Assembly (NCBI GenBank): GCA_963748215.1
Contig: CAVVHS010000008.1
Location: forward strand, 224,001 to 288,000
Reading direction: 5' to 3'
Length of the DNA: 64,000 nucleotides
From: an uncultured Gammaproteobacteria bacterium
GTDB lineage: Bacteria; Pseudomonadota; Gammaproteobacteria; UBA9214
Numbering within the stretch: position 1 is the stretch's first letter; each line of letters starts with the position of its first letter. Shown here in pieces: positions 35,151-59,306 of the stretch. Both the position numbers and the translations under genes were made by a program. Under the pieces are notes generated by a model. The model had not been told where the DNA came from. It searched no databases and saw nothing but the letters and a program-made list of their open reading frames with translations.

Positions 35151-35200
35151 TCGGCAATTGCTCCCGGCATTGCTCTACCTCCTACCTCCATGTAGTCGTG
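35151..35200 (-). repeat. 50-bp GGA-hairpin mini-element (homologous to 57415-57464)
   Basis: Reverse complement CACGACTACATGGAGGTAGGAGGTAGAGCAATGCCGGGAGCAATTGCCGA. Confidence 0.88.
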
Positions 35201-35211
35201 CGCGAGGTGAT

Positions 35212-56096: not shown

Positions 56097-57338
56097 ATGG
56101 ACTCTGTCAATGTACTCGCGCGCCACGGCTTCAGCATCGGCACCGGGCTGTTCGAGGCCGTTCCCGGTCAGCGCTTCGTGCTGCCGTTCCGGCGTGCCAG
56201 GGTGGCCCTGCTGGTCATCGCGCTCATGGCACTCGTCATGACCGTGCCGGCCGTACATACGTTCCGCGACGCTGCCGGCAGCTGGGGCAATCTCGATGGC
56301 CTGTTCGACCTGACCTCGGCCCTGTTCCTGACCGGCTGGCTGCTGGGCTGGTCGATGGGCCTGTTCATCCTGTACGGCCTGTTCGCATTGCTGTGGCTCG
56401 GGCGGGAGACACTGGTGCTGCGTCCCGGTGCCGTGGAAATCCGGCTCGGCCTGCCGTTCCTGTTCCTCCGGGTGCGGCTCGATCCCTCTCGCATCAGCGA
56501 GTTGCACCATCACGTACCGCAGGCAGGCTACGGCACCGCCTGGCGCGGACCGCACCTGGCATTCGACTATGACGGTTCCCACATGGCGATCGGCTCCAAT
56601 CTCGACCCGGCCGCCGCCGACCGGCTGGCCGGACTGATCCGCGCCCTGCCGGCCAGTACCGGCACCAGCGCGCCCGGCTACTACATCACCACGCCGCAGC
56701 AGGCGCTGGCTGCCGGCGCGGACACCGACGACGCGACTGACCCGGCGCCCGTGATCACCCGGGCCGAATCCTTCCCGCTATCCATGCTGGTACTGGTTGC
56801 CGCCAACCTGGTGCCGGTCATCGGCGTGCTGCTCTACGGCTGGGACCTCGGCAAACTGATGGTCCTGTTCTGGGCGGAAAGCGGCATTATCGGTCTCTAC
56901 AACCTGCTCAAGATGGCCGTGGTGCAGCGCTGGGTGGTGTTGTTTACCGGCCCGTTGTTCGTCGGCCACTTCGGCGCCTTCATGGCCGTGCATTTCCTGT
57001 TCGTCTACGAGTTGTTCGTTTCACGCAATACCAGCGTGGACAGCTCGCTGGCGGAGGTGGGTCAGTACCTGTTCGCGCTGTGGCCGGCGCTGCTGGCCCT
57101 GCTGCTCAGTCACGGGCTGTCATTTTTCTACAACTTCATCGGGCGCGGCGAATACCGCAACAAGCGCATGCGCGAGCAGATGGGCGAGCCGTACGGCCGC
57201 GTCATGATCATGCATGTCACGGTGATCATCGGCGGCGGCCTGAGCCTGGTGCTGGGCAATCCTGCCGCGGCACTGCTGTTGCTCGTGGCGCTCAAGGTCG
57301 CGGCGGACATCACCGCGCATCGCAGGCAGCACCGCTAG
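56097..57338 (+). CDS. Membrane protein with C-terminal DUF6498-like domain
   Basis: L.AANLVP..GVL..GW, FW.ES, F..HFG.F, PYGRVMIMH. Confidence 0.78.
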   Translation: MDSVNVLARHGFSIGTGLFEAVPGQRFVLPFRRARVALLVIALMALVMTVPAVHTFRDAAGSWGNLDGLFDLTSALFLTGWLLGWSMGLFILYGLFALLWLGRETLVLRPGAVEIRLGLPFLFLRVRLDPSRISELHHHVPQAGYGTAWRGPHLAFDYDGSHMAIGSNLDPAAADRLAGLIRALPASTGTSAPGYYITTPQQALAAGADTDDATDPAPVITRAESFPLSMLVLVAANLVPVIGVLLYGWDLGKLMVLFWAESGIIGLYNLLKMAVVQRWVVLFTGPLFVGHFGAFMAVHFLFVYELFVSRNTSVDSSLAEVGQYLFALWPALLALLLSHGLSFFYNFIGRGEYRNKRMREQMGEPYGRVMIMHVTVIIGGGLSLVLGNPAAALLLLVALKVAADITAHRRQHR

Positions 57339-57980
57339 CCCGCATTTCTCACCGGGATCCCGGAGAAGGTGAGACCGCGTAGCGGTCGAGAGGCTGGCCT
57401 GGGCCATGCTGGCGCACGACTGCAGGGATGCAGGAGGTAGAGCAATGCAGGGAGCAATTGCCGAGGGCTCGTGTGACCGGACGACGCTCTGGAACGAAAG
57501 ACCCGCTCGAGGCACAGAGCAGGGGCCCCGGCGTAGCCGGGGATGCGACAGCCAGTGGGCGGGATGTCGCTTCGAATACCACCGCGGGTCTTCGCTTCAC
57601 CGGGGGTCAGATCCCCACCGCTGCGCGGCGGGGCCCCTCTTCCGCCCCTCGAAGCGATGCAGCCGTAGCTACCACTTGTGTGATGAGGTCGCTCCCGACG
57701 GTCGCTACGGGCTTCCTGCCCTCTCGCGACACTTGTGCATCCCTGCACATCGTCCTGTCTCCCGGCGACGATGGACAGGAAGTCCGAGTGTCGCGAAGCA
57801 CAGGGATGTGCGAGAGCGACCACTTGTACATCCCTGTACATCGCAAGTACGGGTGCACGAGAACCAGCCAGGGCCGGGATAGGCAGCGGCCAATGACACG
57901 CTATTTGCTACCGTATGAGTATTGGTTTCATGGTTTCAGCTCATTATGTCGGATAACCGTCGCCCGGTGAGAAATGCGGG
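57339..57980. mobile_element. 642-bp non-autonomous element (MITE) with nested hairpin cargo
   Basis: Perfect 18-bp TIRs CCCGCATTTCTCACCGGG / CCCGGTGAGAAATGCGGG, CTAG duplicated on both sides, no transposase. Ends resemble IS1380-family termini (inference). Confidence 0.9.
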
Positions 57981-59306
57981 CTAGCCGAACATATCGTAGG
58001 TAATGTTGCGATACCAGTCGACGGCGTAGATGGCCTCCAGCGGCCGCGCCGCCGGGTCATCGGCCGCACTGACACCGCCGGAACCCTCGACCGCGACAGC
58101 CTTGCCGTCCACCATCTTGTAGACGCCGGAGACGGAGATGCCATGCTCCGGCGTGATCAGGCTGTAGCAGGTGTTGATCCAGTACGGCGCGATCGGCGGC
58201 TCGCCCCTGAGCAGCTGCACCACGTTGGCGGCACACACCTTGGCCTCGGAATTCGCCGCATAACCGGACTTCGGCAACGGTGCCTGGATGGCCGCATCAC
58301 CGATCACGTGAATATCGGGTAACAGTCGGGATTCCCAGGTCAGGTAATCAACCGGACACCAGCCACTGGCATCGGCCAGCCCCGCCTGCACGGCGAGATC
58401 GCCGGCCCGCTGCGCGGGAATGATATTGATGACATCACCCGGGTGCGAACCGAACTCGGTCCGTACCGTCATGTTTGGAACATCGACGCCGACAACCCGG
58501 CCGTCCTGACCCGCCGGCACCCATTCGATCATGGCGTGATCGGTACCGTAGCCGAAGTGTTGTTCCCAACCGGCGATGAACAGCGACTGCTTGGAGAACT
58601 TGTCCTTGGCATCCAGGATCAGCACCCGGGAGCGGGGTTTAAACTTGCTCAGGTAGTACGCGATCATGCTGGCGCGCTCGGGCGGACCGGGTGGACAGCG
58701 AAACGGATCGGGCGGCGGCGCGATGATCACGGTGCCGCCATCCGGCATCGCCTCCAGTTGCCGCCGCAGCAGCGCGGTCTGTGCACCGCCGTGCCAGGCA
58801 TGCGGCATGGCCTGCATCGCTGCGGCATCGTAACCTTCCACGTTGTCCCGGAACCCGATGCCGGGCGACACGATCAGGCGGTCATAGCCGAGCGTGTCGC
58901 CACCCGCCAGCGTCACCCGGTGCCGGTCCGGGTCGATGGCCGTCACCGTGTCATGCACGACCTTCACACCGTGCCGGTCGCGCAGATTGTCGTAGCTGTG
59001 GGTAATGAAATCCATGCCATGCAGACCGCCCAGCACCCAGTTGCTTGCCGGGCAGGTAACGAAGACCGTCTTCGGTTCGATCAGCGTGACGTCGATGTCG
59101 CTGGCGAAATGACGCAGGTAGCGGGCGGCAGTCACGCCACCGAATCCACCCCCGACCACCACCACCCGGGCCGGGCCGGTCTTGCCTGCTGCAACCCCGG
59201 TTTCCGGCGCGACGTCCGCCCTGTTTCCCGCGCGCTCGTCACAGCCTGCCAGCAGCAGGCCGGCGCCGGACGCCTGGAGAAATCGTCTTCTGCTGAATCC
59301 GGGCAT
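57981..59306 (-). CDS. fccB: Flavocytochrome c sulfide dehydrogenase, flavoprotein subunit
   Basis: Tat signal SRRRFL, GGGFGG, TCPASN (FAD-linking Cys), RCPPGP.ER, GWCPV, PKSG..AN, NTCYS. Confidence 0.92.

Follow-up and report, generated by a model that had tools for sequence, protein, structure and literature searches.

We examined a 64,000-nucleotide (nt) stretch of the genome of an uncultured gammaproteobacterium (GTDB lineage UBA9214; contig CAVVHS010000008.1, positions 224,001 to 288,000), here called the window, and in it a 642-bp element at positions 57339 to 57980. A sequence-only reading had described this element as a miniature inverted-repeat transposable element (MITE) packed with hairpins whose GGA loops resemble CsrA/RsmA binding sites, and had proposed that it might be a mobile Csr sponge. 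We found that the element is a nonautonomous DNA transposon, a MITE. The hairpins were found on smaller repeat modules that are nested in it and that also occur outside it.

The element and its insertion site

The convergent neighbors named by the sequence-only reading were confirmed with Pfam. Upstream, on the plus strand, lies a gene for a DUF6498 protein (56097 to 57338; PF20108, 174 bits), whose TAG stop codon (57336 to 57338) falls inside the left CTAG flank of the element. Downstream, on the minus strand, lies an fccB-like gene for the flavoprotein of flavocytochrome c sulfide dehydrogenase (57981 to 59306; PF21706 and PF09242), with its stop codon at 57981 to 57983. The element begins with the left terminal inverted repeat (TIR), CCCGCATTTCTCACCGGG (57339 to 57356, plus strand), and ends with the right TIR (57963 to 57980, minus strand). 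As claimed, these 18-bp TIRs are perfect, and with the flanking GCTAG included, the perfect inverted repeat extends to 23 nt (57334 to 57356 and 57963 to 57985). The target duplicate CTAG stands on the left at 57335 to 57338 and on the right at 57981 to 57984, where CTA on the plus strand is the TAG stop codon of the sulfide dehydrogenase gene on the minus strand.

We found an empty site in the same-genus genome G045, which reads ...gcagcaccgCTAGccgaacat... (caccgCTAGccgaac). Identity to G045 is 97% over a 639-nt upstream query and, in the 100 nt adjoining the site, 100% on one side and 96% on the other. Because the flanks in G045 are contiguous over one CTAG, we concluded that the two genes overlapped by CTAG before the insertion; in G045 (L166:2110-2170), the convergent genes overlap by this CTAG, which is a TAG stop codon on both strands. 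The genome G044 carries the element at the orthologous site. Its copy (L167; G044:C88:1-560, reverse strand) differs at about 3.5% of positions outside a 48-nt gap, which is similar to the flanking gene. We also found a joint in DNA run X4 (57333>57980) that skips 646 nt, although its short side has only 23 letters and it is weak evidence. The empty and filled sites document the insertion: the MITE entered the CTAG in which the stop codons of the convergent genes overlapped, and the 4-bp duplication returned its own stop codon to each gene. Since each gene had its stop restored in this way, the insertion would have cost nothing.

To count copies, we looked in the 3.5-Mb genome for a 15-nt core of the terminal sequence, allowing at most 2 mismatches, and obtained 88 matches. 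When ends on the plus and minus strands were matched up, 39 pairs resulted. Four were dropped: two measuring 33 to 34 bp, one measuring 2712 bp, and one measuring 1311 bp. The remaining 35 are intact copies of 117 to 677 bp. The 1311-bp pair (C2:13221-14531) was rejected as a false pair with 3 mismatches; it encloses an ordinary 321-amino-acid frame that looks dehydrogenase-like by eye. Thirteen intact copies measure 117 to 128 bp, one measures 226 bp, and seven measure 238 to 241 bp, and these are followed by singles and small groups up to 642, 671, and 677 bp, so that the window copy is among the three largest. CTAG flanks both ends in 23 of the 35 copies. By position, the inner G/C is conserved in 34 of 35, TA in 31 to 34, the outer C in 28, and the outer G in 30. 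The duplication could be either the 4-bp CTAG or TA inside CTAG, and the flank counts fit both. The perfect inverted ends, the 35 copies, the CTAG flanks, and the empty and filled orthologous sites together bear out the identification of the element as a MITE.

The TIR is present in 18 of 37 genomes of the genus and is abundant only in the genome of the window (G000; 34 and 37 ends on the two strands), G044 (32 and 41), and G045 (23 and 24). The 13 copies of the minimal form of about 120 bp align end to end and have no cargo. The window copy shares an A+T-richer core with this form (57874 to 57962, plus strand, from the alignment of the two). No Pfam family matched the internal frames of 180 and 168 amino acids, and we rejected them as genes. 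In being a short noncoding element with perfect TIRs that targets CTAG, duplicates TA or CTAG, exists in tens of copies, and shows presence/absence polymorphism among close relatives, the element is like MITEs derived from the IS630/Tc1-mariner or IS5 families. It is unlike them in two respects. We found no partner transposase with these ends in its own genome or in the listed genomes of the genus, and its copies span a more than five-fold range of length because other repeats are nested inside them.

It is also conceivable that the element matters only as strong secondary structure between convergent genes, protecting the 3' ends of their mRNAs from exonucleases or insulating convergent transcription, with GGA irrelevant. 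Repetitive extragenic palindromic (REP) elements stabilize upstream mRNA. Before the insertion, no spacer separated the two genes, whose stop codons were shared, and an RNA-library contig runs from the 3' end of fccB 160 nt into the element. The whole element folds at -312.6 and -313.2 kcal/mol on the two strands (z = -7.5 and -9.7 against shuffles), but any set of nested inverted repeats would be expected to fold strongly. In addition, the sister genome G045 manages without the element, and the element contains no intrinsic terminator of quality. We therefore regard this explanation as improbable.

GGA-loop hairpins and the modules that carry them

By inspecting the sequence, we found all seven GGA-loop hairpins at the positions claimed for them. 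Four are on the plus strand: CTGCAGGGATGCAG (57420 to 57433), GCAGGGAGC (57447 to 57455), GGACAGGAAGTCC (GGAC-AGGAA-GTCC; 57773 to 57785), and GCACAGGGATGTGC (GCAC-AGGGAT-GTGC; 57798 to 57811). On the minus strand, in plus coordinates, are GGGC-AGGAA-GCCC (57709 to 57721), GTGC-AGGGAT-GCAC (57735 to 57748), and GTAC-AGGGAT-GTAC (57826 to 57839). The last of these reads GTACAGGGATGTAC on the minus strand, which confirms the exact match there to the CsrA consensus from systematic evolution of ligands by exponential enrichment (SELEX). Counting perfect stems of at least 4 pairs with loops of 4 to 7 nt on both strands, we found 7 GGA-loop hairpins in the element. Shuffled sequences averaged 1.5 and had at most 6, and none of 300 shuffles reached 7; these were made with our own neighbor-preserving swap procedure, which is not an exact dinucleotide shuffle. 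Folded alone, the small hairpins are predicted to have energies of -3.4 to -5.4 kcal/mol.

The hairpins are not conserved across the 35 copies. The 13 minimal copies have 0 or 1, as do six of the seven copies of 238 to 241 bp. Copies of 249 to 495 bp have 0 to 4, the 671-bp copy has 2, and the 677-bp copy has 4. Only the window copy has 7. Because the hairpins are missing from most copies, the proposal that a transposable element distributes CsrA-titrating modules is not supported for the MITE family.

We found that the hairpins lie in a series of discrete modules. Nearest the left end is a 42-nt module that we call P (57365 to 57406, plus strand), which consists of a conserved 5' part (GAAGGTGAG), a variable hairpin, and a conserved 3' part (CGAGAGGCTGGCCTGGGCCA) and sits between GGA and TG. 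It is followed by a 48-nt two-hairpin unit (57417 to 57464, plus strand), the core of what we call Q arrays, which holds the GGA loops of the hairpins at 57420 to 57433 and 57447 to 57455 and a GGAGG like a Shine-Dalgarno sequence. In this unit, a five-pair hairpin whose loop is NGGA is followed by GGAGGTAGAGCAATG and then by another hairpin, whose 10-nt loop contains GGA. A 161-nt G+C-rich palindromic segment (57500 to 57660; arms at 57507 to 57533 and 57626 to 57652) occurs only inside long MITE copies, and joints at 57499/57500>57661 are present in sequencing-run data. The hairpins at 57709 to 57721 and 57735 to 57748 form a block (57700 to 57755, minus strand) of the type seen in REPINs, the hairpin-forming doublets of REP sequences. 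A block of the same kind in the plus orientation (57767 to 57822) holds the hairpins at 57773 to 57785 and 57798 to 57811. The hairpin at 57826 to 57839 belongs to a further unit (57815 to 57845, minus strand), which is the inverted partner of 57793 to 57814 (22-nt arms, 82%) and forms a long hairpin with it.

In the longer copies, the cargo starts right after CACCGGGAT, ends in GGCCGGGAT before the shared core, and is bounded by two CCGGGAT repeats. The 120 bp by which the 120-bp and 240-bp forms differ may be either an insertion or a deletion between these two repeats. Pieces of the element are shared by 119 loci of its own genome, 79 of which lack MITE ends. In a first sample of genomes, the modules were present in 24 of 24 from the same genus, at 90 to 98% identity over about 50 nt, and in 1 of 16 from other families. 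The GGA hairpins belong to these passengers and not to the MITE itself.

The passengers also change in place. The 48-nt unit is absent from the 240-bp copies and stands alone at many loci, and the G044 orthologue has a second, homologous 48-nt unit inserted after GGAGGTA within its Q part. From the extra unit in G044 and the absence from the 240-bp copies, we concluded that 48-nt units come and go in place. When we compared the orthologous spacers of G044, G045, G008, and G002, the arrays differed or were absent, with about 446, 268, 84, and 16 nt at one site. These differences between species indicate a turnover of arrays, by gain and loss, over the time that separates species. One standalone array of the Q type, GCGCACGACTACA-TGGA-GGTAGGAGGTAGAGCAATGCCGGGAGCAATTGCCGA, lies elsewhere in the window just after the end of a gene (35151 to 35206, minus strand; G000:C8:259151-259206).

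Small mosaic units (the P cap, the 48-nt unit, the REPIN-like blocks, and the 161-nt segment) have accumulated in both orientations inside the window copy, and their accumulation is why this copy is large. The passengers form an independent, lineage-wide repeat system with CA-NGGA-TG loops, of the same kind as the bacterial interspersed mosaic elements (BIMEs) of Escherichia coli, the Neisseria intergenic mosaic elements (NIMEs), and REPINs with their REP-associated tyrosine transposases (RAYTs). Like those systems, it consists of mosaic intergenic arrays of short palindromes, GTAG-headed REPs bracket some of them, and Y1 genes are present in the genome. Unlike those systems, it conserves the CA-NGGA-TG loop and not the stem, P sits in the loops of other units, and no RAYT gene is flanked by its modules. 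Enterobacterial repetitive intergenic consensus (ERIC) sequences, also called intergenic repeat units (IRUs), with internal insertions and the pneumococcal BOX elements are similar in that longer variants add to a core repeat discrete modules that recur in varied numbers and combinations. Here, in contrast, each added module is an independent dispersed repeat in its own right; the modules occur in both orientations and at 79 loci without MITE ends.

The REP heads GTAGGAGCG and GTAGGGTGC occur 135 and 378 times, respectively, in the 3.5-Mb genome. Some standalone hairpin blocks are bracketed by GTAGGAGCG...CGCTCCTAC; the blocks of the window element are without these heads. Another abundant repeat carries GGCCACGGAA, CCACGGAA, and GAACACGGAAAAA in a row (three ANGGA motifs) beside GTAGGGTGCG...CACCCTAC REPs, as at G000:C7:181239-181933, C8:419330-419502, C8:5773-5970, and many more places. 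The sequence CCGTGTTCTTCCGTGG occurs 64 times in 3.5 Mb.

The P module and the conserved loop

P has 38 matches in its own genome (for example, G000:C4:81262-81305 and 81329-81372) and 118 copies in at least 114 stretches of other metagenome-assembled genomes (MAGs; loci L041-L154). Among 401 genomes drawn evenly across the class, we found the P pattern (at most 2 mismatches) in 4: its own genome, two of the genus, and one of another family. In the 38 own-genome matches and the 118 MAG copies alike, P sits atop a stem that resumes after TG. GGA directly precedes P in at least 98 of the 118 copies (CAGGGA in 38, CATGGA in 20, GCAGGA in 12, CCCGGA in 8, CACGGA in 6, and others). The variable P hairpin is 99% paired over 68 sequences, with double changes in 3 of its 6 pairs, and the inner pairs of the stem that closes P covary, with 16 to 18 double changes per pair. 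The loop of the P hairpin is altered in the G044 copy of the element.

The Q hairpin gave us a comparison of empty and filled forms. The empty hairpin is CTGCAGGGATGCAG, the filled one is CTGCAGGGA-P-TGCAG, and the difference is exactly the 42 nt of P. This indicates that P is an insertion between GGA and TG. Its position is ambiguous by at most 1 base, it makes no target duplication, and it is always in one orientation. Consistently with this, DNA run X4 contains a P-less joint (57364>57408) exactly at the position of P. An Rfam search of 15 P-bearing loci returned no usable family. P also recurs in two conserved sequence contexts unlike the hairpin arrays, ...AAGGTGAATTGA-P-C...CATCAAGAGAGGGTGCCCTGG and ...GCGCGACGAATCTTTGCGGGA-P-CTCCGGTCCGGC... 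(L047, L113, L134, and L144; L059, L109, L133, and L153). MAGs with these contexts are labeled Luminiphilus or Halieaceae (L047 and L113) and Lysobacterales (L059), and no Rfam family was found there.

We then asked which loops such hairpins carry. The genome has 371 hairpins that follow the pattern N3-CA-N4-TG-N3'; their commonest loops were GGGA (36) and TGGA (24), and the next reached 14. The 67 hairpins with an NGGA loop have 18 different outer stems, and their N is G in 36, T in 24, and A in 6. The same loop on 18 outer stems shows that the loop is conserved while the stem is free. The conserved loop would then be a recognition or joining site of the repeat system, acting at the level of DNA or of a single strand, and not a decoy selected to bind CsrA. 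Terminator-like sites within 150 nt in the own genome followed no pattern (3 of 46 P copies, 1 of 67 Q heads, and 3 of 67 hairpins). Judging by eye, without a count, we noted several arrays in other MAGs that begin right after a T-run.

One mechanism by which units might be joined at such a loop would make the P cap and the 48-nt unit either single-strand transposons in miniature, akin to the palindrome-associated transposable elements (PATEs) of the IS200/IS605 family, or substrates of RAYTs; they would be cut and joined at the hairpin loop, with the MITE as one landing place. P has no inverted ends, no target duplication, and one orientation relative to NGGA. A covarying hairpin lies close to its left end, and there is another hairpin at its right end. 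An A precedes each of the three mapped insertions (P, the 48-nt unit in the MITE, and that in G044), and each of them ends in A. The genome has five Y1_Tnp genes, and GTAG-headed REPs bracket some hairpin blocks. However, none of the five Y1_Tnp genes is flanked by modules, no orthologous filled and empty pair was found for P, and covariation of the closing stem is also expected from insertion into ready-made hairpins. P resembles an IS200/IS605 PATE in lacking TIRs and a target site duplication, in strand-specific insertion by a short fixed sequence, and in its hairpins near both ends. It differs in being only 42 nt long, in having its target inside a hairpin loop, and in having no link to TnpA: among the five Y1_Tnp genes, we found no cognate TnpA element with the same ends as P. 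To our knowledge, 42 nt is far below any known PATE. The idea is compatible with a mosaic repeat system joined at its loops, and we hold it as a tentative possibility that is on balance unlikely.

Two of the Y1_Tnp genes are identical and RAYT-like (G000:C9:316317-316643 and C9:333650-333976). They lie 17 kb apart, each with AAAACGTGGTCTGTCCCC-type repeats on both sides, and these repeats are possibly their own REP family.

Taken together, these data make it probable that the element is a MITE carrying passengers of a BIME/NIME/REPIN-like repeat system whose loop marks the joining site. Several results weigh against this reading. No clean orthologous filled and empty pair for P was present in the spacers of G044, G045, G008, and G002. 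No GGA-loop hairpin or module lies within 1.5 kb of any of the five Y1_Tnp genes; this check covered the Y1_Tnp flanks only, and the genome also has two IS110 genes. For the MITE, we found no TIR pairs 0.7 to 3 kb apart enclosing a transposase in its own genome (95% complete) or among the genus matches listed, no DDE_3 gene in the genome, no MITE-type ends within 2.5 kb of any of six DDE_Tnp_1 matches, and no plasmid match. With regard to an IS630 origin, the genome holds no DDE_3 gene, and the flanks fit TA within CTAG as well as a CTAG duplication. Finally, every base of the loop agrees with the CsrA/RsmE consensus, a free N before GGA included, which a pure DNA-target reading does not predict, and ANGGA motifs are enriched 4-fold on one strand of standalone arrays, at 12.1 per kb as against 3.4 on the opposite strand and 2.8 genome-wide.

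The loops as proposed CsrA-binding sites

The last two of these results favor the proposal that the element is a mobile Csr sponge. According to this model, transcripts of the element (from read-through or its own) and of standalone arrays expose ANGGA loops that bind CsrA, and the repeats spread CsrA-titrating or CsrA-regulated modules. The genome does have a canonical csrA, as the model requires (64 amino acids; G000:C5:13308-13463, minus strand; PF02599, 92 bits), and residues 1 to 57 of the protein align with solved CsrA/RsmA chains (E = 5.5e-28 to 1vpz). The loops CA-NGGA-TG, with the free N described above, fit the SELEX consensus and the consensus for RsmE. In the 48-nt unit, two GGAs lie in loops with GGAGG between them, and both loop GGAs are free in the predicted local fold (unpaired probabilities of 1.0 and 0.7 to 0.9). 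GGA was kept in all five hairpins that could be compared in the G044 orthologue, where one change is adjacent to GGA. RNA-library contigs from three runs (X16-X18) hold parts of the element, and one of them spans 57821 to 58055, from the element to the 3' end of fccB. These contigs are without strand information and may hold DNA, and depth over the element sums all copies.

The loops match the consensus, but five of the seven triplets are predicted to be paired with inverted sister copies: in the modeled fold of the whole element, which has units in both orientations, their unpaired probability is at most 0.3. In a 66-nt context, the hairpins at 57798 and 57826, the latter being the exact SELEX match, form one long hairpin (-32/-31 kcal/mol) with a predicted GGA unpaired probability of 0.0. 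In predicted local folds, which like the fold of the whole element ignore cotranscriptional folding, the GGAs at 57426 and 57451 are free, and three are buried: the hairpins at 57735, 57798, and 57826 (ACA-GGGA-UGU) lie within long hairpins even in contexts of 66 to 100 nt.

The Infernal check against Rfam gave no Csr/Rsm match in the region or the genome. In the region, to which the search with the CsrB and CsrC models was confined, there were only 4 chance matches at E of at least 1, none of them Csr/Rsm; across the genome, the RsmZ model gave none, and the best RsmY match scored 18.6 bits against a threshold of 57. That no other Csr/Rsm small RNA (sRNA) was found in the genome can also be read in favor of a sponge made of repeats. 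Of 21 places in the genome that loosely match a consensus for the GacA/UvrY box, none precedes a GGA array, and the densest ANGGA windows held no sRNA-like locus. Clusters of perfect hairpins on one strand were too few to judge, with only 5 having multiple sites. We found no promoter-like site in the element, and its only terminator-like site, on the minus strand, is weak. It resembles CsrB, CsrC, RsmY, and RsmZ in having several A-N-GGA motifs in short loops and between hairpins, and the 48-nt unit resembles a two-hairpin slice of these sRNAs. It is unlike them in having no covariance match, no upstream box, no terminator, about 100 dispersed loci in place of one to a few genes, both orientations inside a single element, and GGAs that in this copy are mostly predicted to be paired.

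Q arrays have no strand bias relative to their neighbors (12 sense and 11 antisense at codirectional sites, with 9 convergent and 8 divergent sites), although the gene calls used here were crude (2815 genes, 79% of the genome), a coarseness that again counts against our preferred reading. The stems lack an asymmetry of the G:U type, with 37 G:T versus 33 A:C mismatches in the own genome and 9 versus 6 at other loci. Richness in ANGGA is not specific to these modules, since another repeat is also rich in it (CACGGAA three times beside GTAGGGTGC REPs). Our literature search found no paper linking CsrA with MITEs or REPs. With the hairpins also absent from most MITE copies, we consider it very unlikely that the element and the arrays act as a sponge. 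The broader form of the idea, that CA-NGGA-UG hairpins, the 48-nt unit, and the P cap are lineage-wide mobile CsrA-binding modules (a candidate distributed sponge or portable leaders and trailers), seems to us just as improbable. For the window element, the Csr sponge reading is unproven and unlikely, and the element appears to have no dedicated Csr function.

If the loops did bind CsrA, mobile repeats could rewire a global posttranscriptional regulator, and the genome would need no classical CsrB/RsmZ gene, none of which was found. If hairpin loops are indeed where P homes, few of the site-specific mobile units described would be as small. The window element is an example of how repeats nesting in repeats built a 642-bp element from a 120-bp core. 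It also illustrates a neutral MITE insertion, in which overlapping CTAG stop codons are a ready-made target and the duplication is harmless, as it restores both of them.

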